Positions 3,801 through 28,184 of a stretch of DNA of 60,369 nt are shown here, piece by piece. Made by a program: the position numbers and the translations under genes. Origin of the DNA: an uncultured Candidatus Poseidoniales archaeon (GTDB taxonomy: Archaea > Thermoplasmatota > Poseidoniia > Poseidoniales > Poseidoniaceae). The stretch lies in the NCBI GenBank assembly GCA_964577145.1, contig CAZNXM010000007.1:4224-64592 (forward strand). The letters are read 5' to 3'. Each line of letters begins with the position of its first letter. Positions within the stretch are counted from its first letter, which is position 1. Under the pieces are notes generated by a model. That model was given only the letters and a program-made list of their open reading frames with translations, did no database searches and was not told the DNA's origin.

Positions 3801-3946
3801 AAAAAGACTTGAGAAAGTCCTACTCCATAGGATAGAACTGTCGTAATTACAAGACTTGCAAGGAAGACTCCTGCAAATACTGCAAGGCCGCGCTCACGTC
3901 CACGCCATGCCCCGATACTTGCAAGACGAAGTTTGTCGAAATTCAT
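869..3946 (-). CDS. ABC transporter permease, FtsX/MacB/LolE family (two permease repeats with large extracellular domains)
   Basis: Two FtsX-type motifs (EQRRREISIHRVIGAT; NQRQKELAVLQAIGASPNQI), each followed by TM helices. It is flanked by two ABC ATPases. Confidence 0.92.
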   Translation of the reverse strand: MNFDKLRLASIGAWRGRERGLAVFAGVFLASLVITTVLSYGVGLSQVFFQDSLDDEIFDAKIEFDDEPSESATGWTNDTAIMVETCTELVQRSEIADCTVVLGKRATHGGFGFGDETIFKAMPLEMNSTNSTANTKWNNVTWAYPEGFEQGPPISAKRTVQFFGPEAFDGVISDRLSSNLVQDMGEWVSAEEMASQRGVYLPISYSSETGATVGEVIDELSFFYTIDSAFPGEPEITEDNCEGKISFNVQVGITHCQKEMRIENITILGFYEPWPINNPTLEANSVMMSWEILDTNQTRTLMDSDHIYLGIALDRSQIPSESTVAAEEWLEILDRDIEEQNYTSAGIEVNYVDIISGTISFLNIFLGLIQAFDYIIMVPIVVLSLSVLIYGLVLSLEQRRREISIHRVIGATAKGLRGMVMLELAVMSTVAWLAGYLLAMVAVPIVLSSVGFMEFSPLGFSVDPRLGFGSTLFTMIATLGLALIFGRSKAKDFIEMEIDEGVRKVREVNKPKRWLHWTLFLIGMFAVIDSWLEMNGSEDGLNSNWFIEGLLGIFAPFMLWIGGALLLGRIGAAGPRIMQFFLGRTPLLNDVKRGLKGSGSAESVNRLAVIMLLTLSIVTLAAVQGYTGTVVDEKTASVQVGSELKVTMVDNLTQSEVEAAIMVHTDADVNLQAVNIPKFQLQDEDDNSFTTWVLLDDAESVLHWDQQAIPGDDVSQAMDAYAGMTFSAGEDAAFALDLWGSGRGKAGGSEDILLGKSNEESVVLELKWRDIGFNFSSMEFTETYHESSLRYIGIHEYVPGVSTIEMASTLVIGEQAYRSFVGDDEVDNLRANVWVVSIDGIDEDDLKALRAVLQSDESFDDAEDWKTAHENVERNGGLIFGTPGLLSLQFVVASLAAVASSFVFLSLVLNQRQKELAVLQAIGASPNQIIRLVLFEILSIIIVSMGLGMLLGMGLAISFNGLFEVFGFIFQIFGGSSTVIQRDLVWPWTQLGIVAISVFTAVVAALLLTTRKALGADLASVLKGE

Positions 3947-4662
3947 TCCTCTTCACCTCCGCCAATTCCCCAAGCCGAACGGATATCGCTCGCTTCACAG
4001 CAACCATCACGGAGCAATAACATGCGGTCTGCCTGACTTGCAAGGTCTGGGTCATGTGTAACCATCAGGATAGAAATTTGATCTTCTCCGTGGCTCAGTT
4101 CTTTGAATAATTCAAGAATTTCTTGGCCGCTAACTGTATCGAGATTTCCGGTTGGTTCATCAGCGAGCAGTATCGGCCTCTCACCCGCAATTGCACGAGC
4201 AATAGCAACTCTTTGTTGCTGTCCTCCTGAAAGTTGGTCAGGAATATGGTCCATTCGATCTTCTAGACCAACTCTGATTAGCGCTGCTTCTGCTTTCTTT
4301 TCAGCTTCTAGGGCAGGTACACCAGAAATTTCGAGTGCCATGGCGACATTGTCGAGGGCGTTAAGGTGATCCAATAAATGAAAATCTTGGAAAATCCAAC
4401 CTACCTTTTCACGTCGAATGTCAACAACATGTGCTGGGCCCTTGAGACCATATTGCCTACCGTCTAGTTCTATCGAACCCTCATCTCCAGCAAGTAATCC
4501 TCCAATGATATTGAGTAGCGTAGATTTACCGCAGCCCGATGGTCCCATCAAGGCAACCATTTCGCCACGAGAAATCTCGATATCGATGCCCTTCAAAACT
4601 TCAAGTCTATTCGAGCCAGAGCCGAAGCCCTTCATCAGTCCACTAATATTTAGGAGAGACAC
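3943..4662 (-). CDS. ABC transporter ATP-binding protein (LolD-like)
   Basis: GPSGCGKST, LSGGQQQRVAIARA, LLADEPTGNLD and MVTHD. Overlaps the permease start by 4 nt. Confidence 0.96.
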   Translation of the reverse strand: MSLLNISGLMKGFGSGSNRLEVLKGIDIEISRGEMVALMGPSGCGKSTLLNIIGGLLAGDEGSIELDGRQYGLKGPAHVVDIRREKVGWIFQDFHLLDHLNALDNVAMALEISGVPALEAEKKAEAALIRVGLEDRMDHIPDQLSGGQQQRVAIARAIAGERPILLADEPTGNLDTVSGQEILELFKELSHGEDQISILMVTHDPDLASQADRMLLLRDGCCEASDIRSAWGIGGGEEE

Positions 4663-5028
4663 AAAGCACCACCGGGTCTAAGCCCGATTGGCGCTAATTC
4701 ATACTTCTTTTGAAGGACTCGGTATCATGCATGTTGTCACTTTTTAGAACCGAATACTAGATTTATTACCCAGTGACTAAAAGACAAGGTATTGCTAAGT
4801 CCATTTCGGTATTGCTGTTTATCCATTATTTCGGTAACCCAAGTGTCGAGTTCGTGGTCCATACTTCTCCCTCACTTTACTTTACACACCGGGTCCTATA
4901 ATGGCCTTTGGGTGTTTATACTAAAGTTAGTGTTTTTTACAACACCATGGAGTGTGATGAAATACACTAAATGCATATGCGGAATTCTCGCGCCTTCTTC
5001 ATAGACTTCCCACTTATCCAAGCGACCA

Positions 5029-7692
5029 ATGGCATCAGATTCTGATGACCCCTCTGCCGAAAAAAACTACCTCGTTTGGTTTGAAGAATCCGGAATGGGT
5101 GATGTTGCAACTATTGGTGGAAAGGGCGCCTCATTGGGTGAAATGTATTCATCATTAACCGAAAAAGGAATCCCAATCCCAAATGGATTCACCGTTACTG
5201 TTGATGCATATGCTGAATTCGTTGATTCCGAAATTGATTCCACTCGATGGAGTGGCATCCCTGAAGCTGAAGGATTGCCCGGTCTGAGGGACTCGGTAAT
5301 GAAAGCAACAACGCTCAGAGGGGCGATTCATGCATGCTTTGAAGATGCAAAAACTTCAGACCACTTGGAAATGCATTCCAGAACATCACTCGCAAGATCA
5401 CTAATTCTCAAAAGCGTTGTACCTTCGAACATTGAAGAGCAAATAGAGAGCGGTTATCTCTTACTATGCGACGAGTATGGACCAGGTGTTGATGTTGCAG
5501 TACGTTCCTCTGCAACTGTTGAAGATTCGGTAGATGCTTCTTTTGCCGGCCAATATGAATCCTATCTCAATATCACTGGCCCAAGAAGCGTGATTTTCAA
5601 CTGGAAGAGATGTGTTGCTAGCTTATTTACAGAAAGGGCGGTTGCTTACCAAATTGACCGTGGAATGAATCCTCTTGAAGCATCACTCGCAGTTGTGGTG
5701 ATGAAGATGGTTAGGTCGGATTTGGCATCATCTGGAGTAATGTTCACACTTGACCCAGATTCAGGACACTCCGGTGTAATTCATATATCGTCTTCTTTCG
5801 GATTGGGAGAATTACTCGTACAAGGTAGCATCTCTCCTGATGGTTTCCTTGTCTGGAAGAAAGGGCTTGAACAAGGCTTGCCTGCAATTGTACAGCGACA
5901 CCTTGGTGGTAAAGAAGAAAAAATGGTCTACAGTGAAGATTCGGAAACAAAAACAGTAGATGTTTCCATCGCAGACCGACTTTCATTTTCGCTGAAACGC
6001 TCCGAAGTTCTTGAACTCGCAAATATGGCCTTGATAATTGAGCAGCATTATGACAGGCCAATGGATATTGAATGGGCTAAGGATGGAATCAGTGGAGATA
6101 TTTTCATTGTGCAAGCACGTCCTGAAACCGTGCATGCTAAAGAAAAGAGCACTGTCCTAATACGCTATCATATGAATCCAAAATTAGTGAAGAAGTTGCG
6201 TTCCAATGGTTCGGTTTTAGCAACTGGACAAGCTGTTGGAAAGCGGATTGGAGGGGGACAGGTAAGGCAATACCAGGACTATGAAGCGGTTATTTCCAGC
6301 AAACGAAATTTAAGAGATAGGTTGGCAACAGGTATTGAACTTGATTCGCTAGAATGGGCTGACCGTGTATTCGAGGAAGGTGATGTTCTCGTAACCGATA
6401 TGACTACTCCAGATTGGGAGCCGATGATGAAACAGGCCTCCTTGATTATCACTCGCAAAGGAGGAAGAACAAGTCACGCTGCAATCATTGCCCGAGAATT
6501 TGGAATCCCTGCAATTGTTGGGGCAACAGATGTCATGAGAATACTCGAGGATGGCATGGTAGTAACCGGGTCCTGCGCCGAAGGGGATGATGGATTAATC
6601 TTCAAAGGTGAGCAGCCATTTGAGATTGAAGAAATCGTAATCGACACAGATCAAAAACTCAAAACTAAAATCAAATTAAACGTCGGTTTTCCAACTAAAG
6701 CACTCGCTGATTCAATGCTACCCGTTGATGGAGTAGGACTTGCGAGAATTGAATTTATCCTCTCTGCTGAAGTCGGAATTCATCCAATGGCATTGGTACA
6801 TTGTGATGCTTTAATCGAGTATGCAGAAACCGGAGTAATTCCAAATAGCCTATTGCCATTCAGGCGTGGTCTAGAGAGAACAAATGGAAAAGATAGAGCG
6901 GAATTAATCCGAGCAATCTCCGAAAAGAGCAGAAACTCAGCCAATCCTAAATCTCTCTTTATCGACGAACTCAGAGAGGGCGTGGGTCTGATTTGTGCAG
7001 CATTTTATCCAAGGCCAGTCTTGGTTAGGCTTTCAGATTTCAAATCAAATGAGTATAGGGAATTACTTGGAGGCGAGATATTTGAGCCAATTGAGGAAAA
7101 CCCAATGATCGCTTGGAGAGGAGCCAGCCGTTATGTTGACCCGCGATTTTCACAAGCCTTCGAAATGGAATGTGAAGCTTTGCAAGGTGTACGCCACGAC
7201 ATGGGTCTAGATAATCTGCAATTGATGATACCTTTCTGTCGCTCACCCGAAGAAGGAATCGCCGTAAAGAATATCCTCGAAAAAAGAAACCTGGGCTCAC
7301 AAGACGGAGTTCCTTTATTCATCATGGTTGAATTGCCTTCCAATGTTATTGAAGCGGATCGTTTCATCGATGAAATGCAACTCGATGGAGGGTCGATTGG
7401 TACCAATGACCTCGTACAGACAGTATATGCGGTTAGCAGGGATGACTTGGAGGGATACTTACACCCCGTTGATGCTAGGTCTTCAGCAGTGAAAACAATG
7501 GTTAGGAGAACCATTGAAACTTTCAAGGAAAAGGGAATTGAAATCGGAATTTGTGGTCAGGCCCCTTCAGACCACCCAGAAGAATATCCTCCTTTCTTAA
7601 TCGAATGTGGAATTACCTCTATTTCGGTAACTCCTGATACAGCTGTTGCAGTAAGAATCGCTGTCGAAAAGGCAGAAAATAGACTTCTATAA
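5029..7692 (+). CDS. ppsA: Phosphoenolpyruvate synthase (pyruvate, water dikinase)
   Basis: GGKGASLGEM, VAVRSSATVED..ASFAGQ, DIEWAKDG, phospho-His GGRTSHAAIIARE, GVGLAR.EF, RLSDFKSNEY, EENPMIAWRGASRY, SIGTNDL and GICGQAPSD. Confidence 0.97.
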   Translation: MASDSDDPSAEKNYLVWFEESGMGDVATIGGKGASLGEMYSSLTEKGIPIPNGFTVTVDAYAEFVDSEIDSTRWSGIPEAEGLPGLRDSVMKATTLRGAIHACFEDAKTSDHLEMHSRTSLARSLILKSVVPSNIEEQIESGYLLLCDEYGPGVDVAVRSSATVEDSVDASFAGQYESYLNITGPRSVIFNWKRCVASLFTERAVAYQIDRGMNPLEASLAVVVMKMVRSDLASSGVMFTLDPDSGHSGVIHISSSFGLGELLVQGSISPDGFLVWKKGLEQGLPAIVQRHLGGKEEKMVYSEDSETKTVDVSIADRLSFSLKRSEVLELANMALIIEQHYDRPMDIEWAKDGISGDIFIVQARPETVHAKEKSTVLIRYHMNPKLVKKLRSNGSVLATGQAVGKRIGGGQVRQYQDYEAVISSKRNLRDRLATGIELDSLEWADRVFEEGDVLVTDMTTPDWEPMMKQASLIITRKGGRTSHAAIIAREFGIPAIVGATDVMRILEDGMVVTGSCAEGDDGLIFKGEQPFEIEEIVIDTDQKLKTKIKLNVGFPTKALADSMLPVDGVGLARIEFILSAEVGIHPMALVHCDALIEYAETGVIPNSLLPFRRGLERTNGKDRAELIRAISEKSRNSANPKSLFIDELREGVGLICAAFYPRPVLVRLSDFKSNEYRELLGGEIFEPIEENPMIAWRGASRYVDPRFSQAFEMECEALQGVRHDMGLDNLQLMIPFCRSPEEGIAVKNILEKRNLGSQDGVPLFIMVELPSNVIEADRFIDEMQLDGGSIGTNDLVQTVYAVSRDDLEGYLHPVDARSSAVKTMVRRTIETFKEKGIEIGICGQAPSDHPEEYPPFLIECGITSISVTPDTAVAVRIAVEKAENRLL

Positions 7693-8742
7693 TCAATCAT
7701 TTTGGCGATCGATAATTATCTCATCATAGAGTTTGATGTTGAGCAGAATCTCACCGAAATCACGTGAATACGCACAGAGTCTACGGATTGACTCAGATAA
7801 CCTAAATTCGAAAATTAAATTTCGAGCGGTGCGCCTTCCTTCCATCATTCCTTCTTCGTGTAATTGCAATACATTCTGGACTCTCTTTAGTTCATGGCGA
7901 GCTTTCTCAATTCCATGAGAATCTCGAGTTCTTATATTGATCATCAATTGCTTAATCGATTCTTGCCAAATTGGAATTTGAACGATTGGGGATTCATCGA
8001 TTTTCAATTTGATTCCACCGTCGAACTCTTGTATCATTTGAGAGATTTGTAATGCGTGGTCCATCATTCTCTCAAGGCATCTGGCAAGATTTGAATGCTC
8101 AACTGCTTGGTTCCTACCGAGTTTTAGAGAAGTTGCTACAAGGTGTGAATCCAGAGCAATGCAAACTTGTCGCTCGATTAGATAGAGTAGTGCATCAACT
8201 TCTGATTCTCTTTCTTCTGAATCGTCCAATAAATCAATATCGTCACCGTCAAGCACTGACATTATGTCTCGTATTAGGGATGATAATTGGAGATACATAC
8301 GGTTGATACTAGCGCTGAGAGGCATGTCTGAAGCGTTGATTAAGCATACTATCTCGGTATGCTTATCGTCTTCAGACATCGTTTCAAAACCTCTTGTATT
8401 CCGCAAGAATCTTCGGATTTCTTTACGGTGTTTCTTTCCTCCATCGTCATTGAAATGAATTCTAATTTTATCCACTCCGGAAATATACGCTCCCATCAGA
8501 TGGTCGTGAAGACTATCTTCAGGAAGTGAATTTGCATTGATTACTACTCTCTTGACCTGCTTATCGAGCATGTCTATTGGGGTAAGTCGAAGCGCACCAC
8601 TGGGGCGCCAATCTACTCTTACTCCATCCCTCGGACGCAATTCATTTGCAACGACCCAAGGCTTGGGCAAACTGAGGGTATATGTTGCACCGCCTGTTAA
8701 CTGGACCTTGCGGACATCTTGTTCTCCAGGACCAAATGCCAT
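7693..8742 (-). CDS. phoU: Phosphate uptake regulator PhoU with N-terminal AbrB/MazE-type DNA-binding domain
   Basis: N-terminal RKVQLTGGATYTLSLPKPWV is typical of archaeal AbrB-PhoU. PhoU helical repeats ERESEVDAL and ARCLERMMDHA follow. Divergent from a PiT transporter. ATG at 8742 preferred over TTG at 8751. Confidence 0.88.
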   Translation of the reverse strand: MAFGPGEQDVRKVQLTGGATYTLSLPKPWVVANELRPRDGVRVDWRPSGALRLTPIDMLDKQVKRVVINANSLPEDSLHDHLMGAYISGVDKIRIHFNDDGGKKHRKEIRRFLRNTRGFETMSEDDKHTEIVCLINASDMPLSASINRMYLQLSSLIRDIMSVLDGDDIDLLDDSEERESEVDALLYLIERQVCIALDSHLVATSLKLGRNQAVEHSNLARCLERMMDHALQISQMIQEFDGGIKLKIDESPIVQIPIWQESIKQLMINIRTRDSHGIEKARHELKRVQNVLQLHEEGMMEGRRTARNLIFEFRLSESIRRLCAYSRDFGEILLNIKLYDEIIIDRQND

Positions 8743-8823
8743 CGTTCTCAAAACCGCGAATATTTACTTCTATATATATTACCGTGGTTGCAGGTGATAT
8801 ACCGACAGACCCAGCAATAATTC
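8743..8823. promoter_or_regulatory. Divergent promoter region between phoU and pit with a TATATATA element
   Basis: AT-rich TCTATATATATT at about 8769-8780 between divergent starts. Confidence 0.5.
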
Positions 8824-10938
8824 ATGGAACCTGCTACCATGCTATTGCTCAGTGTCGCTGTCCTTGTTTGTGCCTATATGGCATGGAACATTGGAGCAAA
8901 TGATGTTGCAAATGCAATGGGGACAAGCGTAGGCAGTGGTGCACTCACATTGCGTAGAGCGATTATCGTAGCTGCTGTTTTTGAATTTGCAGGTGCGGTA
9001 TTCTTTGGTAGCCATGTTACTGATACCATCAGGAAAGGAGTTCTCGATTTTGGTGGAGAGGATTTCTCAGAGGAACTAAGCCTGAATCTAATGTATGGAT
9101 TTATGGCAGCACTTCTCGCTGCAGCGATCTGGCTTACTATTGCAACCAAGTTTGGTTTACCAGTTTCCACAACACACAGTATCGTAGGTGGAGTTATTGG
9201 AATGGGACTGTGGATTCAGCCCAGCAGTGTCAATTGGCCAAAGGTAGGGGAGATTGTATTGAGTTGGGTCGCTTCTCCATTACTTGGAGGGTTACTTGCC
9301 TACCTCTCCTTCGTCATCATCAAACGGGTGATTTTCAATCACGAAAACCCTGTTGAAAGGACCCGGAAGGTCGCACCTCTTCTTGCACTACCAACATTCT
9401 TTGTCCTTGGACTAGCTCTACAATTCAAGGGGCTGAAAGGATTCTACAAGAATCTTGACAACGCTGGAATTATCGACAAGGCAAATTGGCTTCCTCCTAA
9501 AGATGGAGTCACTTTCAATCCATTTGCAGATGGTGCTTGGATACCTCTCAACAGCCTATTGGTCGCTTTGGCAATTGGTTGCTTTGCAAGTTCAATTCTC
9601 TGGTATGTTCTAAAACGATACGAGTTCAAGGAAGAGGGATATGCTGGCGTTGAACGTGTATTCGTTTGGCTTCAAATCATCACCGCTTGTTATGTTGCAT
9701 TCGCTCACGGGGCGAATGATGTCGCTAATGCTATCGGGCCAATGGCTGCAATTTGGGATGTTGCAAATAATGGCATACTATCACCTGATCAAGTCGGCGT
9801 ACCATTCGGATTACTACTCTTAGGAGGAGCGGGAATTACGGTTGGTGTTGCGACCTGGGGGTACAAGGTGATGGATACTATTGGAAAGAAAATTACCCAT
9901 ATCACTCCATCACGTGGATTCGCCGCGGAATTTGGTGCAGCGACAACAGTGCTGATTTTCTCTATGCCTTTCCTAGCAGTACCAATCTCAACTACGCATA
10001 CCTTAGTCGGTGCAGTAGTAGGTGTCGGTCTTGCAGGTGGTGCATCTTCAGTTGATTTCCGAGTATTCGCTAAAATTGCTGCAAGTTGGGTCGCAAGCCT
10101 TCCTTTCGCAGGTTTAGGAGCGGTAATGTTCTACATTCTATTCGCTGGAAGTACTACCAATGTTGCAATAGTCACACTCCTTGCAATGGGTGCAACTGCA
10201 TTCATATTAACCCGAAAATCTGCTGATGAAGATCTCGGTGAAGAAGCAGATGTCGTAACCGATGCACCGGTTGACGATACTATTGCAGAGGTTACCAAGC
10301 CAAAGCCATTCGAGATGTTCCATCTACATGCTAAGGCTGTCGAGAGAACTGTTGACTGCATGCTCGATGCTGTCAAGGCTGCTGCATCTGGAAAAGATGC
10401 TAGTGATTTCATAACTGCGACTATTGCCGCTGAACTCGAGGCTGATAATATCAAAAACGATTTGCGTGAAGAAATCGGCACTGGTGTCAGGATTACGATT
10501 GGCCGTGATAACTTCATGCAAATGATTGCTCGTCAGGATAGAATTGCTGACTATGCCCAGAATGTTGCAGAGCAACTCTCTTTCCGAACCCTATTCGATA
10601 ACTCTGAAGCACGAAAACAACTCTCTGCTATGGGTGAAGCAGTCGCAAAGACCGTTGCCAAATACGAAGAGACTGTAGAACAAATCATGATATTGAGCCA
10701 TTCCGGTTTCGCTCGCAAAGAGATGATAGTTCTCATGGATTTAATCAAAGAAGTCAATTATCTCGAGCATGAAGCTGATGTCGTCGAAAGAAAGGCTGCT
10801 GCAATTGTATTCAGCCAAGGCGATGATAGTGCTCTTGCAGCCATGCACATGTACCGAGTTTTACAACGCCTTGACGATGTTGCAAATGCTTGTGAAAAGG
10901 CGGCTAATGCCTTCTTGCCACTGACACATCAGAGATGA
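8824..10938 (+). CDS. pit: Inorganic phosphate transporter (PiT/PHO4 family) fused to a C-terminal DUF47/PhoU-like domain
   Basis: PiT signatures GANDVANAMG, PVSTTHSIVG, HGANDVANAIGP and PISTTHTLVG. The C-terminal ~210 aa are soluble and helical (ELEADNIK, QDRIADYA, LEHEADVVE, LDDVANACE). Confidence 0.93.
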   Translation: MEPATMLLLSVAVLVCAYMAWNIGANDVANAMGTSVGSGALTLRRAIIVAAVFEFAGAVFFGSHVTDTIRKGVLDFGGEDFSEELSLNLMYGFMAALLAAAIWLTIATKFGLPVSTTHSIVGGVIGMGLWIQPSSVNWPKVGEIVLSWVASPLLGGLLAYLSFVIIKRVIFNHENPVERTRKVAPLLALPTFFVLGLALQFKGLKGFYKNLDNAGIIDKANWLPPKDGVTFNPFADGAWIPLNSLLVALAIGCFASSILWYVLKRYEFKEEGYAGVERVFVWLQIITACYVAFAHGANDVANAIGPMAAIWDVANNGILSPDQVGVPFGLLLLGGAGITVGVATWGYKVMDTIGKKITHITPSRGFAAEFGAATTVLIFSMPFLAVPISTTHTLVGAVVGVGLAGGASSVDFRVFAKIAASWVASLPFAGLGAVMFYILFAGSTTNVAIVTLLAMGATAFILTRKSADEDLGEEADVVTDAPVDDTIAEVTKPKPFEMFHLHAKAVERTVDCMLDAVKAAASGKDASDFITATIAAELEADNIKNDLREEIGTGVRITIGRDNFMQMIARQDRIADYAQNVAEQLSFRTLFDNSEARKQLSAMGEAVAKTVAKYEETVEQIMILSHSGFARKEMIVLMDLIKEVNYLEHEADVVERKAAAIVFSQGDDSALAAMHMYRVLQRLDDVANACEKAANAFLPLTHQR

Positions 10939-20855: not shown

Positions 20856-21455
20856 TCAGAAAGTAGATTCCCACTCGTCGACGTCCTGAGTTTCAGCCCA
20901 AGCTTCATCGGTGGTTTCTCCACGTACCTTGAGAACTTCGCGTGCGAGAATCCAGTAGAGTAGTGCAAGAGAGCGGCGACCCTTGTTGTTCGCAGGTAGT
21001 GCGAGGTCAACGTTACGGAGATTGTTGTTTGCATCACAGATTCCTACGATTGGGAGTCCTGTGTTAACCGCTTCACGAAGTGCTTGCTGGTCAGCTGCTG
21101 GGTCGGTAACGAAAAGGATGTCAGGCTCGACATAGGAACGAAGAGCGGGGTTGGTCAATGAACCTGGAATGAAGCGGCCGACTGCTGCACGAGCGCCGAT
21201 TGCCTCTGCAAATAGACGAGCAGGTCGCTGTCCATATTGGCGAGCGGAAACAACCATGATGTTTGCAGACTCGTAGCGGTTGAGGAAATTTGCAATAGTA
21301 CGAATTCGAGAATCGGTGATGTTGATGTCGATTAAGTAGAGACCATCCGCACGGACTTCCTGAATGAAGGTAGCCATATCGGCACTCTTCTGCTGGGTAC
21401 CGATGTGAACGGCATGCGTCTCATAGAGCTCGTTATCGACGAGTAGTTCTGTCAT
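20856..21455 (-). CDS. rps2: 30S ribosomal protein uS2 (archaeal)
   Basis: VHIGTQQKSADM, VRADGLYLID, GRFIPGSLTNP and PANNKGRRSLALLYW. GAGGT SD upstream. Confidence 0.98.
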   Translation of the reverse strand: MTELLVDNELYETHAVHIGTQQKSADMATFIQEVRADGLYLIDINITDSRIRTIANFLNRYESANIMVVSARQYGQRPARLFAEAIGARAAVGRFIPGSLTNPALRSYVEPDILFVTDPAADQQALREAVNTGLPIVGICDANNNLRNVDLALPANNKGRRSLALLYWILAREVLKVRGETTDEAWAETQDVDEWESTF

Positions 21456-21613: not shown

Positions 21614-22795
21614 ATGACTACCGATAATGAGTCACCTCTCCATCATGCAGAGGAATCTGACGATGGATTTTGGCGTAATTCAAAAGGTGAGGCATTGCAT
21701 GTTTCGGCTAGTGACTTGGAGCGCCATGCCTATTGTCCATTGTCATGGCAATTAGCCCGAAAAGGAAAGCCGGGTCGTGGAGAAGCCGTTCAGGCAGGAA
21801 GGGTTGCTCACGCAGAAATTCATAAGCGTGTGGAAGATTTCAAAGCCAAACAATTCGATTTACGCCGTGCACTTGTCATCTGGTCCTGGTGGTTTGCAAT
21901 CGTTCTAGTCATCATTGCAGATAGTATTGTTTTCTCGACACTAGATGATGAGATAAGGCCACCAATAGACATGGCAAAGTTCCTTGCAATGCTTGCGGTA
22001 TCTTGGTTAGGAGTAGGTTTGCTCGCAATTTACTTTCCTTGGCGACAATGGATTAACTTTCCAACAGAGGAAGATGAATACAAAGCAAAAATCGAGAATT
22101 TGAACGATATCATAATCGAACCAACCCTCCAACCTATCGGGTTCATTGGCGGTTGGTCGCAAGGTGGGAGAGTCGAGGCAGGACTACTATTGGGATCTAT
22201 CATATTGGGTGTTCACGCCATAGGGTTAACATGGGCTGAAAATAAGGAAAATGCCGCATTCATTCTCATTATCATGGCAACGATTTGGACACTTATCGCT
22301 TCATGGCAATTACAGAAAGCACTGCTAGCAGACAATGCTCTCGAAATCGCCCGTCTGGAAGCTGGGATAGAAGAAAATGTTGATGTCGCTTACTCAGATG
22401 ACGAATCCACTGCTGGTTTACTAATTGACAAAGAAACTGGTCTGAGAGGGAGACCTGACCAAATCGTCATTGTTGATGGAGAATTTATTCCGGTCGAGCA
22501 AAAGACCGGGAAAATTCCTAACAAGCCTCACAAGTCACACCAAATGCAATTATTAGCATACATTTTCCTTGTCGCATCTACTACTGGACGGGCTCCACCA
22601 TATGGCGTACTGCGTTACGGCCCTGAAAGTATTCACACGATTCAATGGAATGAAAAATCAAGTTCAAGGTTAATGGCGTCAACCAAAGAAATTCAGCGCC
22701 TAATGGTTCAAGGTGGCGCAGAGAGAAATCATACTCGAAAGGGGAAGTGTGCTAGTTGTTCACGTCGCTATGCTTGTGATTCAAGTCTGGTTTAA
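21614..22795 (+). CDS. Solo Cas4-like PD-(D/E)XK nuclease with Fe-S cysteines and four inserted transmembrane helices
   Basis: N-terminal SASDLERHAYCP, GRVAHAEIH, LRGRPD, PVEQKTG, QLLAY and C-terminal CASCSRRYAC (CX2CX5C). Hydrophobic segments at about aa 86-107, 121-143, 187-208 and 214-233. Confidence 0.88.
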   Translation: MTTDNESPLHHAEESDDGFWRNSKGEALHVSASDLERHAYCPLSWQLARKGKPGRGEAVQAGRVAHAEIHKRVEDFKAKQFDLRRALVIWSWWFAIVLVIIADSIVFSTLDDEIRPPIDMAKFLAMLAVSWLGVGLLAIYFPWRQWINFPTEEDEYKAKIENLNDIIIEPTLQPIGFIGGWSQGGRVEAGLLLGSIILGVHAIGLTWAENKENAAFILIIMATIWTLIASWQLQKALLADNALEIARLEAGIEENVDVAYSDDESTAGLLIDKETGLRGRPDQIVIVDGEFIPVEQKTGKIPNKPHKSHQMQLLAYIFLVASTTGRAPPYGVLRYGPESIHTIQWNEKSSSRLMASTKEIQRLMVQGGAERNHTRKGKCASCSRRYACDSSLV

Positions 22796-23341
22796 CTATT
22801 CCATAACGCAATCTTCTGGCGCAGTTGGATATTTGATGCAATCACGCTCAATTGTGATTAGAACATGGAATGAATCTTCCATTTGCCCTTCGACTCCATA
22901 CCCTCTTGCCTCAACGGTCAGAGTCCAAGTTCCCATTGCCAATGGTTGGAACAAATCTTTCTCTAGTGTACTATCTGAATCCGTTAATCGTTCTGACCAC
23001 ACGGTCTCTCCATCTGCACTGATTAATGAGGCTTCGACATATCTAACCCCATCGGGAACTGGGATATTTTCTCCAAATGGAATTGACGCTGAAAGATAGG
23101 CTCCAATTCTAGTGACGTGCTCATCGACCTCGAATTGCTGATCTGCTTCATATGGAGAGATAGTCAGTGGTGAAACAAAATTATGGGAAAGAGCGATTTT
23201 TTCCTGTAGCGTTCCTTCCTCTGGTTCCATCATCATACCTTCAACAAATTCGCGGGCTGGAACCAAACCAATACATCCTGCACTCGACATCAAAATGATG
23301 GTGAGCATGAAGAAAGCAGGCAAGACTCTCCGGGTTCGCAT
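22796..23341 (-). CDS. Hypothetical lipoprotein
   Basis: Basic N-terminus MRTRR, hydrophobic core and lipobox-like SSAGC, then an acidic beta-rich body (GTWTLTVEA). Confidence 0.75.
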   Translation of the reverse strand: MRTRRVLPAFFMLTIILMSSAGCIGLVPAREFVEGMMMEPEEGTLQEKIALSHNFVSPLTISPYEADQQFEVDEHVTRIGAYLSASIPFGENIPVPDGVRYVEASLISADGETVWSERLTDSDSTLEKDLFQPLAMGTWTLTVEARGYGVEGQMEDSFHVLITIERDCIKYPTAPEDCVME

Positions 23342-23495: not shown

Positions 23496-26252
23496 TCACT
23501 CAAACTTCGCACCACATGTAGAGCATCCTTTTGCATCTGTAGCAATATCTGCACCACATGCACCACATTCTGCAGTTTCGACCTTAGCCTTTCTGCGTCT
23601 TGGTGCTTTCCTCTTCTGAGCTTGAACTGGATTGATTTCATCATCAGTATCATCGAATGAAAAGTCCATTGCTTCCTCGGGTAATTCGTTTCCTGGAAGA
23701 GAGCGGTCCTGAATACCCATTCCGATATTGACCTCATCTCCAGGCATTACGCCTTCCTCGCCAGTGATCTCGTACAGTCTACCACGGATTGAAGCATCAC
23801 TCGCAGTCAATTCTTCTCCCTTGTCGAGGTGAGGTTTTATTTCACCCTTAGCAGCAAGTATTGCATCGATATCATGACCTTCAAAGGTCTCATCGATGGA
23901 CTTGAGTGTAGGCTCAACAATTGCCATTGCTTCCTCATCATCCATATCAGCATCAATCTCTGCTGCAACACGCCTATCGTAAGCTGCTTCGACTTCTGCC
24001 TCTGCCTTTGCAATGCTTTCATCCCAATGGCCTTCTAGGTCATCAGCATCATATCCGAATTCCTTGACCGCTTCATCGAAATCCTCGTAACCCGAGGCAT
24101 GAATTGTCGTAGGGTCGATTTCTTCTTCGTCGGGTAATGAAATCTCTTCTTTGGGCTCGATGGTCTTCCTCTCTCTGCGCTGGAAATAATTCGAAACGTC
24201 TTGTGGTGTACCACAGTATGGGCAATTTGAGAGAAGGTCAGGTATAGACTCAGTACATGTTTCACAATCGTGGAATTGTTGTCGAGCCTTTTTGAGATTG
24301 AATGAACACGAAGGGCATCTATCCTCTCCGCCTTCAAGTTCACCATCACAAGCAGGACAATAATCGAAAATATCTCTTTCGACCTCTTCATCGGGGTCCC
24401 TAGTGAGATATATGGCTGCAACCAGCGCCCCAACAAGTATGGCTAGGATTATTCCAATGATTGCAAGAGTACCCATGGTACCATCTGCCTGTGAATCAAC
24501 ACCCTGTCCTGGTAGTGATGCAGTATCCCAATTTCTGGTGAAGGTTGATGTAACAATATCATCTTCTGAAATAATTAGTAAATTCGTTTTAGGATGACTA
24601 GCAATGAACGTGCATGAGATTTGAACAATTTCTGAACGATTTACTACTTCTACCTCAATATCTTCCCAAACTCCACCGCTACCGTCTTCACAACTCATAT
24701 TCACCGTACCGGTCTCAACCGATGAAAGATTGATTGTGATAGTGTACTCCTCACCATGCGTTAAGGGGAATTCAGCAGCAGCGCCTGAATTATCGGTAAC
24801 ACTAACTGAATTTTGTTGCCACTCCAATCTCAATTGTGCCTCAACCTCAACGGTTCCCGATGCAACCGAATTTACTGGGTCATTGTCCCATGAACCAATT
24901 TGAGGAATCCAATGTGCAGATAATGTGGCTTGATGATTTCCAGAAGTTGTCAATAGCATTTCTTCCCAGATATATGTGCTCTCAGGTTGAATAATTATCA
25001 CTTGAGATTGTACTCCAACCTGGCCTTCCCAATCATATACAACACGTCCAGAAACAGGAATCTGTCCATTATTTGTTACAGAGATTATCCATTCTATCGG
25101 CTCCCCACTAGATACTTGAGGCACAGACGGCATGGCTATTGGATCCAGCGATACATCAGGAATCGGTAGTTTGGAAAAACTGCCACTAATCTCATCGTTT
25201 TCTCTACTCTCTTGAACAAATGATGCAGTATGGTAGGGGTCGATAATTGCTGTAACTGGATATATTCCTGCTGCAATATTGGACACTAAGGAATAATTCA
25301 ACTGGTAAGACCATGCTTTTTGGGCATTCTCTCCGCCAGAAATTGTCACATCGAAGGTTGGAATAATCACATTCTGTCCAGTCTCATCCACGATTTCGAG
25401 TTTCATTGGAACAATTGTTGTTCCATTACCATTTGTTCGTGAAAGGATACCTGAGATAATCCAAGGCCCCATCAATGCTTCATCGTCCACTTCTACAATC
25501 AAGCCCTCACCAATATGAGAAATGTCCATTCTCTCATCTACTGTTAGGGAACTTGTGAATACATTTGTCTCGTCAGATTCTATTACACTATCTTCCAAGT
25601 CAACTGTAACTGTAATCTCATGAGTTCCAGACTCGGGAGCCGTCATCGATTGATTGACCCAACTTGTGGAGCCAGCATCAAGAGTTTCTACATCCAATGT
25701 AATTGACTGGTCGCCTAAATCAATCTGGAGTTTACTTGCAGGAGCATTTACTGAACCACGGTTTTCGACTAATACAGAGACCTGCACTTGGTCACCAGAA
25801 TTCATTTCTGAAGGAGATGTTTCAATCGTGTTAACTTCAATATCTGCCAATCCTAGAACTGTAAACGACTTGTAAAATGCTTGTTCACCGGCTCCATCAT
25901 GGTCAAATGCAATCCAAACTTTGTGCTCACCTTCGGTCAAACCTGACCAAGTAAACTGGACATCAATGCTCGATTCAGCAGGGATGTCGATTGTATTTGC
26001 TTCAGCTAATTTATCTCCTGAAATACCATCCTTGTAGAATTTGTACAAAACATCGTATGCAGTGAAATCATTTGAGTTGTATAAAGTGAGAATTACTGTC
26101 GTGGAGGACCCTTCGGTTGGGTTTTGAGGTTGTAGGCTGACTGTCGAAGAACTTGCTTGAACTCCACCACTGTCCTCTGCTAATACCCCTAAGGGAAATA
26201 CACTGAGCAAGAGGAGGCCGAGGACGATGGAAGTCACACTAGGCTTCGCCAT
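23496..26252 (-). CDS. Single-pass membrane protein: extracellular CARDB/Ig-like repeats, TM, cytoplasmic zinc ribbons and acidic region
   Basis: Signal peptide from MAKPS (ATG 26252, promoter element 30 nt upstream; the ORF track extends to 26363). CARDB-like VLVENRGS..VD....VIESDETN, TM LAIIGIILAILVGALVAAIYL, then CPAC/CPSC, CETC/CPYC and CGAC/CSTC. Confidence 0.85.
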   Translation of the reverse strand: MAKPSVTSIVLGLLLLSVFPLGVLAEDSGGVQASSSTVSLQPQNPTEGSSTTVILTLYNSNDFTAYDVLYKFYKDGISGDKLAEANTIDIPAESSIDVQFTWSGLTEGEHKVWIAFDHDGAGEQAFYKSFTVLGLADIEVNTIETSPSEMNSGDQVQVSVLVENRGSVNAPASKLQIDLGDQSITLDVETLDAGSTSWVNQSMTAPESGTHEITVTVDLEDSVIESDETNVFTSSLTVDERMDISHIGEGLIVEVDDEALMGPWIISGILSRTNGNGTTIVPMKLEIVDETGQNVIIPTFDVTISGGENAQKAWSYQLNYSLVSNIAAGIYPVTAIIDPYHTASFVQESRENDEISGSFSKLPIPDVSLDPIAMPSVPQVSSGEPIEWIISVTNNGQIPVSGRVVYDWEGQVGVQSQVIIIQPESTYIWEEMLLTTSGNHQATLSAHWIPQIGSWDNDPVNSVASGTVEVEAQLRLEWQQNSVSVTDNSGAAAEFPLTHGEEYTITINLSSVETGTVNMSCEDGSGGVWEDIEVEVVNRSEIVQISCTFIASHPKTNLLIISEDDIVTSTFTRNWDTASLPGQGVDSQADGTMGTLAIIGIILAILVGALVAAIYLTRDPDEEVERDIFDYCPACDGELEGGEDRCPSCSFNLKKARQQFHDCETCTESIPDLLSNCPYCGTPQDVSNYFQRRERKTIEPKEEISLPDEEEIDPTTIHASGYEDFDEAVKEFGYDADDLEGHWDESIAKAEAEVEAAYDRRVAAEIDADMDDEEAMAIVEPTLKSIDETFEGHDIDAILAAKGEIKPHLDKGEELTASDASIRGRLYEITGEEGVMPGDEVNIGMGIQDRSLPGNELPEEAMDFSFDDTDDEINPVQAQKRKAPRRRKAKVETAECGACGADIATDAKGCSTCGAKFE

Positions 26253-26332
26253 ATTTTGAAGAGGGCACGCAGAGCACTTGAACCAATCGAATATAATGCC
26301 GCTATCGGATATGGATACAATAGATACCAACA

Positions 26333-26347
26333 CACCCCGTAGGGGTG
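26333..26347. repeat. Palindromic element CACCCC-GTA-GGGGTG (copy 1 of CCCCGTAGGGG)
   Basis: Read directly. The same 11-mer core occurs at 42484 and, on the minus strand, within 59616-59630. Confidence 0.65.
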
Positions 26348-26390
26348 GTTGGAATGGGAGCATTGAAGGGTGACACTCTTTGTCATAGAA

Positions 26391-28184
26391 ATGATGAGGC
26401 GGTCTGTCATTGCACTTCTGGTCGTAGTCATCATGACTACGTGTTGTGTATCACCGGAGAGCCTGAGGGACCATGATGTCTCTAGGGTTGGTACAAGTGA
26501 ACTCAATTTATCCTTCAGTAATGGCCCAGGTGAAGGAGAGGATGTCACTGGGATTCACACTATTTCTTTCGCAATAACTGGTAACGGAACCACATCGAGT
26601 ATTGAAATTGAAATTTCATCGGATGGCGAAAACTGGTCTACTGTCACCAATATAACTGGGACTCCTTGGCTAACACATTTTGATTCGACTGCATATACAA
26701 ATGGAACTTGGATACTGAGAGCCCGTGCGTGGGATTCCAGTATTTCCGACTCTAGCATTTGGTTCACAAGTGGTAATTTCAATATTGCAAACCAAGTTCC
26801 CGTTATTACTTCATTCGAGTTAACAAATAGTGGCACTGGCTCAGGTACTAGTTCTACAGATAGAGCATGGTACAATGTCGAATCAGATGGCACATTATAC
26901 TTCACTTGGACTGCCAATGATGATGATCTGATATATGCTAGTTTAGCGAATGTCCCCGGCCCCGGAACTCCTTCAGACGATGGACCAGGTACAATTGCAA
27001 ATGGATGGGATTGGTCGTCAGGTTCCTTCTCAGAAGGAACATGGAATCCAAGGTTAACCGTCTGGGATGATTCTGGCCTCTTTGCAACAAAAACCATGTT
27101 CATCGGTATTGATCGCAGCGCTCCTACTCTTTCGACACCAACAATTGGAGATGGAGGTTCTTGGAGTGATTCTACATCTGTTTTGATTAGTGGCTTAACC
27201 GCTGCTGCAGATGATGGAAGCGGTTCAGGAATTTCTCATGTTGAAATCAACTCAGACGGTACTTGGGAATCGGTGATTGGCGATTCTACCACTCTTACTC
27301 TCACAGAAGGATTACACTCCATTTCAATGCGTCCAGTAGACATGGTTGGCAATATTGGAACTGCAATCGATGTTGACATCAATGTTGATGTTACAGACCC
27401 AGAAGGCGCTGGATGGATTGTTGATGAACTAACTACTAGTAGAGTAGGTTCTGCTAATATCTCCTTTACTGCTCTTGATGATGGTTCTGGTATCGACCTT
27501 GACGAATGTCAAATACAATATGGATTCGACCTAAATGGAGTTGGAAACACACCTGACCAAACCGGTACTTGGCTAGACCTCTCTGAAACGGGCCTAGACG
27601 GTTCTATTGGATTGACAAATTGGGCTACAAAATCCAGGCAATATCTCATGCTCAGAGCAGTGGTTACTGATGTTGCAGGAAATACCATTACTACTGTACC
27701 AACCGCTTTCCAAATTTTACCGGGGCTCGACTTGATGTGGAATTCATCTTCTACAACTCTTGACCGTCTAGTCGTACGACCCGGTGATGCAAATGGTCTA
27801 ATTCAAATCACCAGCACTTTAGAATCGAATCAGGCATGGGGTGGGTCATTTACCGTAAGTCTACTCGCAGCTCCTGCAGACCGCTCTGCTGATGTAGATT
27901 GGGTCATAATGGAAACTAGACTCATGCCCAGTGGAACTCTTTCAGATTCTACAGAAGAGATTCTTTGGAATTATACTGTACCAAATACTGGGCAATATGA
28001 TTTGAGGCTCTCAATTGACCCTTCAAACGTAGTTGATGAGAGAGATGAGGGCAATAACGACTTCCACTTAGTCGTGACTGGAGCAGCGATAACCAACTCG
28101 GGAACTGTGCCTTCATTCGCCCCAAGTATTCTTGCAATAATCCTAACTGGATTCCTGATTTCTTGGCTTCAGAGAAAGGAATAA
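26391..28184 (+). CDS. Secreted Ig-like/CARDB surface protein with a PGF-CTERM-like C-terminal anchor
   Basis: Signal peptide, Ser/Thr/Gly-rich beta repeats (D..GSGI, D..GN), CARDB end IDPSNVVDERDEGNN, and C-terminus VPSF + hydrophobic helix + RKE. Start is ATG 26391 or 26394. Confidence 0.8.
   Translation: MMRRSVIALLVVVIMTTCCVSPESLRDHDVSRVGTSELNLSFSNGPGEGEDVTGIHTISFAITGNGTTSSIEIEISSDGENWSTVTNITGTPWLTHFDSTAYTNGTWILRARAWDSSISDSSIWFTSGNFNIANQVPVITSFELTNSGTGSGTSSTDRAWYNVESDGTLYFTWTANDDDLIYASLANVPGPGTPSDDGPGTIANGWDWSSGSFSEGTWNPRLTVWDDSGLFATKTMFIGIDRSAPTLSTPTIGDGGSWSDSTSVLISGLTAAADDGSGSGISHVEINSDGTWESVIGDSTTLTLTEGLHSISMRPVDMVGNIGTAIDVDINVDVTDPEGAGWIVDELTTSRVGSANISFTALDDGSGIDLDECQIQYGFDLNGVGNTPDQTGTWLDLSETGLDGSIGLTNWATKSRQYLMLRAVVTDVAGNTITTVPTAFQILPGLDLMWNSSSTTLDRLVVRPGDANGLIQITSTLESNQAWGGSFTVSLLAAPADRSADVDWVIMETRLMPSGTLSDSTEEILWNYTVPNTGQYDLRLSIDPSNVVDERDEGNNDFHLVVTGAAITNSGTVPSFAPSILAIILTGFLISWLQRKE

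Follow-up and report, generated by a model that had tools for sequence, protein, structure and literature searches.

A predicted Cas4-family nuclease interrupted by tandem membrane hairpins in the Poseidoniales and other Thermoplasmatota

Introduction

Cas4-family nucleases are known as soluble enzymes that serve in CRISPR adaptation or DNA repair, or that occur as "solo" copies. The Poseidoniales, in turn, rank with the most abundant heterotrophic archaea in surface ocean waters. This report concerns a gene of an uncultured Poseidoniales archaeon (assembly GCA_964577145.1, contig CAZNXM010000007.1) that lies at 21614..22795 on the + strand of a stretch of 60,369 nucleotides, the whole of which is called the window (ATG start; stop codon 22793-22795). 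Judged by its motifs and predicted fold, the 393-residue product is a Cas4-family nuclease whose one domain is interrupted by a membrane insert. The insert is, on profile comparison, two homologous copies of a single two-helix hairpin of about 65 residues. That the protein is embedded in the membrane with its nuclease in the cytoplasm is held with high confidence. The gene itself is supported by matches in Pfam and NCBIfam, by orthologues, and by its ratio of nonsynonymous to synonymous substitution (dN/dS).

Cas4 motifs and predicted fold

The protein carries its Cas4 motifs in two separated parts, both on the + strand, as are all parts of the gene. The N-terminal Cas4 segment (residues 29-72; 21698..21829) contains AYCP (39-42), with C41 at 21734-21736, and a helix bearing G62 and H66, the latter a putative metal-binding histidine (21809-21811). 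The catalytic PD-(D/E)XK core (residues 257-393; 22382..22792), delimited by Pfam, invariant residues, and Foldseek, contains GRPD (279-282; 22448-22459), EQK (E295 to K297; 22496-22504), QLLAY (Q312 to Y316; 22547-22561), and CX2CX5C (379-388; 22748-22777). The sole cysteines of the protein are C41, C379, C382, and C388. An earlier sequence-only reading had described the Cas4/AddB hallmarks as intact, and every one of these motifs is present in the 393-residue open reading frame (ORF). Both families that it had named score above their Pfam cut-offs: PDDEXK_1 (PF12705) at 48.2 bits against 22, in two stretches of which the best spans residues 259-389, and Cas_Cas4 (PF01930) at 37.0 bits against 22.7 over residues 278-388. 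These are the only Pfam families found on the protein, and both cover the C-terminal core. A shorter four-helix relative, P0148, reaches 92.5 bits on the 180-position Cas4 model PDLC00943 of PADLOC, for which PADLOC states no cut-off; we take this model to be TIGR00372.

Conservation was assessed in an alignment of 38 four-helix members that are 23-91% identical to the window protein. Twenty positions are invariant in all 38: Y40, C41, G62, G279, P281, D282, P293, K297, P302, S308, H309, Q312, G331, Y335, R371, H373, C379, C382, R384, and C388. In addition, H66, E295, and Y316 are kept in at least 90% of the sequences. The four cysteines probably bind a [4Fe-4S] cluster, and the conserved core residues suggest nuclease activity. 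In AddB and Dna2, an iron-sulfur "staple" likewise joins N- and C-terminal cysteines.

A profile of two-helix relatives (A2) matches solved Cas4 structures (8D3L, E 6e-9; 4R5Q, E 3.9e-8; 4IC1, E 1e-6; 7MI4, E 2.2e-4). Its Cys/His segment aligns with the N-terminus of 8D3L and 4R5Q, weakly when taken alone (8.7 and 3.7 bits), and its core aligns with the core and CX2CX5C of the same two chains. A sequence search of the PDB with the window protein alone returned chance-level matches (E 0.054 and 0.7). AlphaFold2, run on the 38-row alignment, gave a model with a mean predicted local distance difference test score (pLDDT) of 80.4 and a predicted template modelling score (pTM) of 0.71; pLDDT is 91-94 for residues 11-50, 86-87 for residues 51-70, and mostly 85-97 in the core. 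The Foldseek matches of this model to the PDB include the Cas4 structure 8D3L_J (E 1.1e-4; root-mean-square deviation 3.4 over 150 columns) and also the Cas4 proteins 4IC1 (SSO0001), 7MI5, and 4R5Q. Also matched are Dna2, AdnAB, MGME1, and ACE1, a member of the Cas4 family associated with Argonaute (5EAX, 6PPR, and 8XA9 are among these matches). All Foldseek matches of the four-helix model at E <= 0.1 are nuclease chains, and no membrane protein is among them.

Collections of defence and phage proteins point to the same family. The best models in PADLOC-DB 2.0 are Cas4, with a Cas1 fusion also matched and the DruK nuclease domain matched more weakly; no system-specific protein of that database was matched, and no partner genes were found near the gene in the window or in distant loci. 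Matches in PHROGs are to exonuclease and Cas families. No helicase domain was found by Pfam in the window protein or its neighbours. In the ESM Atlas, the whole protein recovers clusters of its own family and a 356-residue bacterial "hypothetical" cluster at 0.93, which is unconfirmed as a relative.

The membrane insert and its repeated hairpin

The insert comprises about 170 residues and lies between the N-terminal Cys/His segment (H66) and the core (D282). The sequence-only reading had placed four hydrophobic helices here, in an insert that it put at roughly 150 residues, and the helices are confirmed. Kyte-Doolittle hydropathy (19-residue window) peaks at 1.86-2.19 around residues 87-107, 123-141, 187-205, and 215-233. 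The first two transmembrane helices (TM1 and TM2; peaks 2.19 and 2.16), joined by a short outer loop, make up hairpin 1 (21872..22036), as defined by hydropathy, the AlphaFold2 model, and repeat homology. The last two (TM3 and TM4; peaks 1.86 and 1.92), likewise joined by an outer loop, make up hairpin 2 (22172..22312), as defined by hydropathy, the model, and sequence entropy. A predicted cytoplasmic loop of residues 142-186 (22037..22171) connects the hairpins; it contains conserved positions, and its pLDDT falls below 50 for residues 156-184. The AlphaFold2 model has long helices at 57-109, 117-140, 185-207, and 211-250. The first and last of these overrun the membrane spans, so TM1 and TM4 would continue as stalks into the nuclease.

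The two hairpins resemble each other well beyond shared hydrophobicity. Their profile-profile alignment (hhalign) scores 55.0 (E 7.7e-13, 64 columns), against 12.9 and 15.6 for column-reversed controls and 5.0-8.2 for five column shuffles. Helix by helix, TM1 pairs with TM3 (E 1.6e-5) and TM2 with TM4 (E 1.5e-10), whereas the cross pairs remain unmatched.

To collect relatives, 1.84 billion representatives were searched exhaustively with HMMER, which found 792 proteins at E <= 0.001. Helices were counted in the best 150 of the 792 plus the query, 69 of which carry both the N-terminal Cys motif and CX2CX5C. Between these motifs, at a peak threshold of 1.5, there are two peaks in 18 proteins, four in 32, and eight in 13 (63/69). 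The remaining six have odd counts (1, 3, or 7) that shift with the threshold, hydropathy being a crude predictor. The hairpins of the two-, four-, and eight-helix forms are all mutually homologous (hhalign scores 29-72 in 21 pairs). By these counts and alignments, relatives in the Thermoplasmatota hold one, two, or four copies of the hairpin (two, four, or eight helices), or are encoded by a split gene.

Resolution is poor in a quick tree built from the soluble parts with the membrane columns masked: of its 60 inner branches, 31 are open. The tree recovers the Poseidoniales clade as monophyletic (Shimodaira-Hasegawa-like approximate likelihood ratio test 99). Hairpin number changes 17 times on the best tree, and at least three changes are forced by well-supported branches. 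The AlphaFold model of an eight-helix form has low confidence (pLDDT 68, pTM 0.49); its Foldseek matches are to nucleases only, and it is therefore uninformative about the helix bundle. The membrane module alone yielded scores of at most 0.78 in the ESM Atlas. A homodimer prediction with two copies, run with no controls, scored 0.00 and weighs neither way.

Within the Poseidoniales (37 sequences, less than 80% identical), the helices of hairpin 2 are nearly as conserved as the core (entropy 1.11 bits for TM3 and 1.03 for TM4, near the 0.96 of the core). Conserved positions include W90, W92, and W93 in the TM1 area, with D103 by its outer end; P142-W143-R144, F177, G179-G180-W181, and G185 in the loop between the hairpins; and, in hairpin 2 or at its edge, E188, H201 by the outer end of TM3, W225, T226, Q232, and Q234. 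The conservation of D103 and H201 is confined to the Poseidoniales clade. The loop between the hairpins is also long only in this clade, and it is far shorter in the four-helix relatives of 320-365 residues.

Topology

By the positive-inside rule, membrane-protein loops rich in lysine and arginine face the cytoplasm. The 63 proteins chosen for having two, four, or eight peaks served as the test set for charge. In 62 of the 63, the loops that share a side with the two termini are richer in lysine plus arginine than the opposite loops, with a density of 0.222 per residue on the nuclease side and 0.089 on the other. The opposite, outer loops have a mean length of 10 residues, and internal loops on the nuclease side a mean of 29. 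Under the rule, this asymmetry places the nuclease in the cytoplasm and leaves almost nothing exposed outside. The argument that an even number of helices puts both halves of the domain on one side of the membrane is borne out by the even counts in 63 of the 69 representatives. The broader proposal of an integral-membrane Cas4-type nuclease with no link to CRISPR is upheld by hydropathy, charge bias, and the absence of Cas1 described below.

Two-gene forms

Matches of about 170-190 residues consist of one N-terminal hydrophobic helix and the core, and they do not have the N-terminal Cys segment; one such single-helix form, of about 175 residues, bears the name of an Anaerolineaceae bacterium. 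In metagenome loci of one lineage, an ORF of about 90 residues lies directly upstream of the core gene in eight of nine cases, the ninth locus being incomplete. Besides the Cys motif and the His helix, this upstream ORF contains one hydrophobic helix, at its C-terminal end. It shares 25 nucleotides, in a different frame, with the 182-residue ORF for the single helix and core. The split loci (L123-L130, e.g., L123 2753-3549) are 84-98% identical, and both two genes and programmed frameshifting fit them.

The same two-gene arrangement occurs in all five genomes, from three genera, of a sister family (f35), several of them on single contigs. The split point falls between the helices of one hairpin: the N-piece has one transmembrane helix in addition to the Cys motif and His helix, and the C-piece one transmembrane helix and the core. 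The two-gene forms (L123-L130 and f35) share with the window protein the motifs and the placement of helices between the Cys/His segment and the core. However, a single hairpin is shared between two polypeptides in the two-gene forms, whereas the window protein holds two hairpins in one chain. Because such forms exist, both halves must be able to reassemble at the membrane.

Distribution and conservation of the gene

Of 8000 candidates scored in a word-indexed search, 1122 proteins reached E <= 0.001. The best 120 of the 1122 are 382-422 residues long and 66-91% identical to the query, with 97-100% of it covered; names among these 120 include [quoted passage not shown] and "CRISPR-associated exonuclease Cas4". 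In the order, 130 of 201 genomes have a match (f1, 99/99; f2, 2/2; f3, 28/99). The pattern is all-or-none by genus: 17 genera are positive in every genome searched, and no match was found in seven f3 genera (g14, g15, g16, g17, g19, g23, and g24; 71 genomes, the listed ones about 1.3-1.6 Mb in size).

Across a sample of the phylum, 211 of 301 genomes have a match. Outside the order, matches start at about query residue 190-220 and thus include the last hairpin; mostly a second, N-terminal match accompanies them, and the ORFs are about 270-360 or 500-600 residues long. Named relatives belong to Thermoplasmata, Thermoplasmatota, Methanomassiliicoccales, "Ca. Natronoplasma", "Ca. Saliniplasma", and unclassified Euryarchaeota. 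A pattern scan of 185,579 species genomes yielded 541 relatives; among the best 80 of these, titles below phylum level name Poseidoniales, Poseidoniaceae, or Thalassarchaeaceae only. In IMG/VR viral contigs, 98 pattern matches included no relative.

Compared with an orthologue 91% identical, dN/dS is 0.089 for the gene as a whole, 0.104 for the membrane module, and 0.056 for the C-terminal part. The gene is under purifying selection, membrane module included. An assembly chimera, which the sequence-only reading had named as a possible flaw, or a mis-joined ORF is so improbable as to be negligible: the full-length architecture recurs in the order's 130 positive genomes, in metagenome proteins numbering in the hundreds, and on contigs of up to 1.9 Mb, and the low dN/dS also argues against it. 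Chance is likewise excluded. One genome of the same family has, besides an intact copy, a second diverged copy (G060:C6:85801-86948; 37-50% identity). It is broken into several matches, one with three in-frame TGA codons, and may be a decaying paralogue.

Independence from CRISPR and other nucleases of the genome

The sequence-only reading had reported no cas1 in the window; Cas1 was not found in the organism's own genome (93.6% complete), and the window gene is the sole Cas_Cas4 match in that genome. Of the 301 genomes in the phylum sample, 73 have Cas1. Poseidoniaceae (f1) have Cas1 in 0/41 genomes and the nuclease match in 41/41; the corresponding counts are 0/8 and 8/8 in f4, 1/9 and 9/9 in f10, 5/24 and 23/24 in f19, and 0/10 and 9/10 in f29. 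The gene is unlinked to CRISPR as judged on Cas1, CRISPR arrays not having been searched for.

The genome encodes several other nucleases of this fold. Contig C14 (L132 3832-12383) carries adjacent AddB-like (1228 residues; PDDEXK_1 and a C-terminal CX2CX5C) and AddA-like (1621 residues; UvrD helicase and PDDEXK_1) genes, a bacterial-type helicase-nuclease in an archaeon. There is also a soluble 381-residue PDDEXK_1 protein. On contig C2 (L134 1175-6366), tandem PDDEXK_1 proteins of 535 and 591 residues directly follow a gene for an ABCE1/RLI-like ABC ATPase. Hydrophobic helices are absent from all of these proteins. The AddB-like gene is present in 196 of the order's 201 genomes, among them 69 of the 71 from the seven genera in which the membrane nuclease was not found. 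Since the AddAB-like pair is present, the membrane nuclease is not the general end-resection enzyme. A role as stand-in for a missing resection nuclease was considered and dropped when the pair was found; NurA (PF09376) was not found in the genome.

Local and phylum-wide gene context

The gene is monocistronic in the window, and base composition around 21614..22795 is unremarkable. The neighbours had been read as rps2 and a lipoprotein, which agrees with what is found: a divergent gene for ribosomal protein S2 (20856..21455, - strand; Pfam Ribosomal_S2) lies upstream across a 158-bp spacer, and a convergent 181-residue ORF (22796..23341, - strand) with a signal-peptide-like N-terminus and a cysteine, secreted or lipoprotein-like and matching no Pfam family, lies downstream. 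Of 81 Poseidoniales loci, 79 have the S2 gene at position -1 and 78 have the 181-residue ORF at +1; because these loci come from close relatives, the conserved order counts as synteny and not as a functional link. No counterpart of the downstream ORF was found beside distant relatives (19 loci from other families). The wider surroundings hold genes for winged-helix regulators, Dus, and large surface proteins with CARDB domains. Two of the latter lie at 23496-26363 (- strand) and 26370-28184 (+ strand); the 955-residue one also has a membrane helix and, on the cytoplasmic side, a tail that bears a double zinc ribbon.

Beyond the order, context was compared in the 19 distant loci plus the window (20 in all). 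Recurrent neighbours are housekeeping genes, namely those for Trm1, an NTPase, L15e, a GlmS-like protein, a tubulin/FtsZ-family protein, and a sugar nucleotidyltransferase. Conserved neighbours across the 19 distant loci include no gene for DNA uptake, a pilus, or an ATPase. Eight-helix members in one family carry a C-terminal TRAM domain after CX2CX5C (L033 7467-9401, - strand, E 1.6e-15; L026 7142-8884, + strand, E 1.1e-10). TRAM is a nucleic-acid-binding fold of RNA-modifying enzymes.

In the sister family f35, a divergent scpA-like kleisin gene lies directly upstream of both pieces of the nuclease in 5/5 genomes (e.g., L141 [G355:C1] 3543-8593, L143 [G423:C44] 4562-9712, and L139 403-1974). 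The order is smc, scpA-like gene, N-piece, and C-piece, and gene ends overlap in both loci with ORFs read. The kleisin profile matches ScpA 6IVH in its N-terminal part (E 1.5e-4) and ScpA C-terminal chains at E 0.2-0.9. The smc gene (products of 1172 and 1176 residues, SMC_N plus hinge) precedes the scpA-like gene in the two genomes checked, and a class I tyrosyl/tryptophanyl-tRNA synthetase gene follows the C-piece in the one locus checked. The idea of a ScpB replacement in f35 was rejected, ScpB being encoded elsewhere in all five genomes. In the archaeon of the window, smc, an scpA-like gene, and scpB lie on another contig, and no kleisin-like ORF was found within about 8 kb in 20 loci of other families (the gene was located in 19). 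On that other contig, C2, a 391-residue gene between smc and scpB (L144 4998-6173) has no Pfam family. It was found by the f35 kleisin-like profile only (E 7.7e-15), and the genome has no SMC_ScpA match; the phylum's kleisin thus seems too diverged for the Pfam model.

Proposed mode of action and alternative explanations

The chances are about even that the protein is a cytoplasm-facing, membrane-built Cas4-family [4Fe-4S] PD-(D/E)XK nuclease that acts on DNA ends. In such an enzyme, the N-terminal segment would supply the first cluster cysteine and the metal-site histidine, and the C-terminal core would supply D282, E295, K297, QxxxY, and three cysteines. Both parts would fold together on the cytoplasmic side into one Cas4 domain, which the tandem hairpins would hold against the inner membrane face through two continuous stalk helices. 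The enzyme would work independently of CRISPR and, by analogy with Cas4, AddB, and Dna2, may trim or cut free single-stranded 5' ends or flaps. Given the membrane tether, only DNA ends that appear at the membrane would be within reach, and action on DNA ends at this site is slightly favoured. As for where such ends come from, entering foreign linear DNA, met by a RecBCD-like innate barrier, is a possible but doubtful source; the cell's own chromosome, in repair or segregation, is tentative to the same degree; and imported DNA is an improbable one.

Several observations weigh against this account or parts of it. TIGR00372 cas4 of NCBIfam scores 61.8 bits and narrowly misses its cut-off of 65. 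The topology is drawn from hydropathy, charge bias, and AlphaFold helices. A look for RNA runs that contain the stretch found none listed. No partner is conserved phylum-wide, the most widespread neighbour family occurring in 5 of the 20 loci. The vertical, syntenic, all-or-none-by-genus pattern is unlike that of typical defence genes, which counts against a barrier, and the gene is missing from small genomes that have an AddAB-like gene, which counts against an essential housekeeping role. With these patterns opposed, neither sub-role is favoured: the vertical syntenic distribution, the housekeeping neighbours, and the f35 smc-scpA link look like a cell-biological function, and its absence from small genomes in which the AddAB-like gene is retained, along with the defence relatives of the family, fits an accessory barrier to entering DNA.

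The sequence-only reading had suggested that DNA is processed while it crosses the membrane, for nutrition, transformation, or attack on injected viral DNA. In this model, the helices, alone or in an oligomer, would make a DNA-conducting pore. The membrane location of a DNA nuclease agrees with this, and the series of two, four, and eight helices could mean a bundle of fixed size built from four, two, or one chains. Yet the outer loops average 10 residues and hence provide no external DNA-binding part, hairpin number has changed several times on the tree, and single-hairpin relatives exist. Moreover, Foldseek finds no channel or transporter fold with the four-helix or the eight-helix model (the latter of low confidence, pLDDT 68), and no ComEC, pilus, or ATPase gene neighbours the nuclease in the 19 distant loci or the window. 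A pore serving uptake or transformation is accordingly not upheld and is considered improbable. A membrane-associated RNA-processing nuclease is less probable still, to the point of being very unlikely: the TRAM domains would suit an RNA substrate, but they are rare (2 of 19 distant loci), and every solved relative by sequence or fold is a DNA nuclease.

Another possibility, unlikely though somewhat less so than a pore, is a gated sensor in which a membrane change (virus entry, depolarisation, or stretch) shifts TM1 relative to TM4 and activates the site, making a one-protein immune or suicide device. The hairpins would then be a mechanical switch coupling membrane state to assembly of the Cas4 active site in a vertically inherited, DNA-destroying device, a proposal carrying the same low probability. 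The insertion splits the active site between H66 and D282/E295/K297, the membrane helices show core-like conservation in the Poseidoniales, D103 and H201 lie near the outer ends of TM1 and TM3, and the gene was not found in the small-genome genera. Kiwa, moreover, is a published membrane-located DNA-binding defence (available text of PMC11785009). However, the switch is read from anatomy only and is pure inference, D103 and H201 are not conserved beyond the Poseidoniales clade, the gene lies outside defence islands, PADLOC recognises only the Cas4/DruK nuclease domain, and inheritance looks vertical and syntenic. Somewhat better placed, and still rather unlikely, is chromosome maintenance with SMC-ScpA, in which the enzyme would work at the membrane, as segregation or division proceeds, and trim either ends of the cell's own DNA or DNA that has become trapped. 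It draws on the constant position of the f35 two-gene form directly after the scpA-like gene, on smc preceding that gene in the two genomes checked, on the housekeeping neighbours elsewhere, and on the vertical-looking inheritance. The link is limited to one family, however, with the window archaeon's own smc, scpA-like gene, and scpB on a different contig and no kleisin-like ORF near the gene in other families. The f35 string also ends in a tRNA synthetase gene and is thus shared by unrelated genes, and seven genera in which the AddAB-like gene is retained gave no match to the nuclease.

Comparison with known systems

CRISPR-associated Cas4 proteins (8D3L of type I-C, 4IC1 SSO0001, 4R5Q Pcal_0546, and 7MI4 Cas4-Cas1) are alike in core motifs, four-cysteine pattern, and fold. 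In contrast to the window protein, interrupted by a two-hairpin module of about 170 residues, Cas4 is one contiguous soluble domain of about 160-220 residues. It also occurs with cas1, cas2, or an array, whereas the window gene is in a genome in which Cas1 was not found (arrays were not searched for). The nuclease fold is common to AddB, AdnAB, Dna2, and MGME1 (PF12705); compared with the AddB type, the window protein is membrane-embedded and has no helicase domain or partner. ComEC-type uptake machinery finds no counterpart in it, either as a matching Pfam domain (PDDEXK_1 and Cas_Cas4 are the only ones) or as a membrane-fold match.

Solo-Cas4 proteins, according to the available text of Hudaiberdiev et al. 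2017 (PMC5704561) and of the work on M. mazei (PMC12501428), likewise lie outside CRISPR-cas loci. In that text of PMC5704561, "transmembrane" is never used and "membrane" occurs once, in an unrelated gene name; in that of PMC12501428, neither word is used. A Cas4-DEDD fusion described in the portion available of PMC13621843 has a different, non-membrane design. Kiwa (KwaA/KwaB) is alike in logic, as a non-sequence-specific DNA-acting module at the membrane that meets entering DNA; as presented in the available part of PMC11785009, it is an unrelated two-protein supercomplex with no nuclease, and PADLOC found no homology between it and the window protein. A published description of a membrane-interrupted Cas4 was not found in the available Cas4 and solo-Cas4 literature, although the supplementary tables of PMC5704561 might list such proteins. 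The repeat nature of the insert, the hairpin-number series, the charge asymmetry, and the genus-level distribution appear to be newly reported here.

Significance

A membrane-interrupted Cas4 fold is fixed in whole archaeal lineages, the Poseidoniales included. The natural series of one, two, and four hairpins and two genes illustrates how a soluble iron-sulfur enzyme may tolerate membrane insertion. If the hairpins were a switch, evolution would have varied it through repeat number and through the two-gene forms. The two-gene form in complete, single-contig genomes of the sister family may allow genetics, if these organisms are cultured. Should the enzyme be active at the membrane, it would define a new place of DNA-end processing in archaea, one of relevance to viral entry, gene transfer, and the handling of chromosomes in organisms not yet grown.

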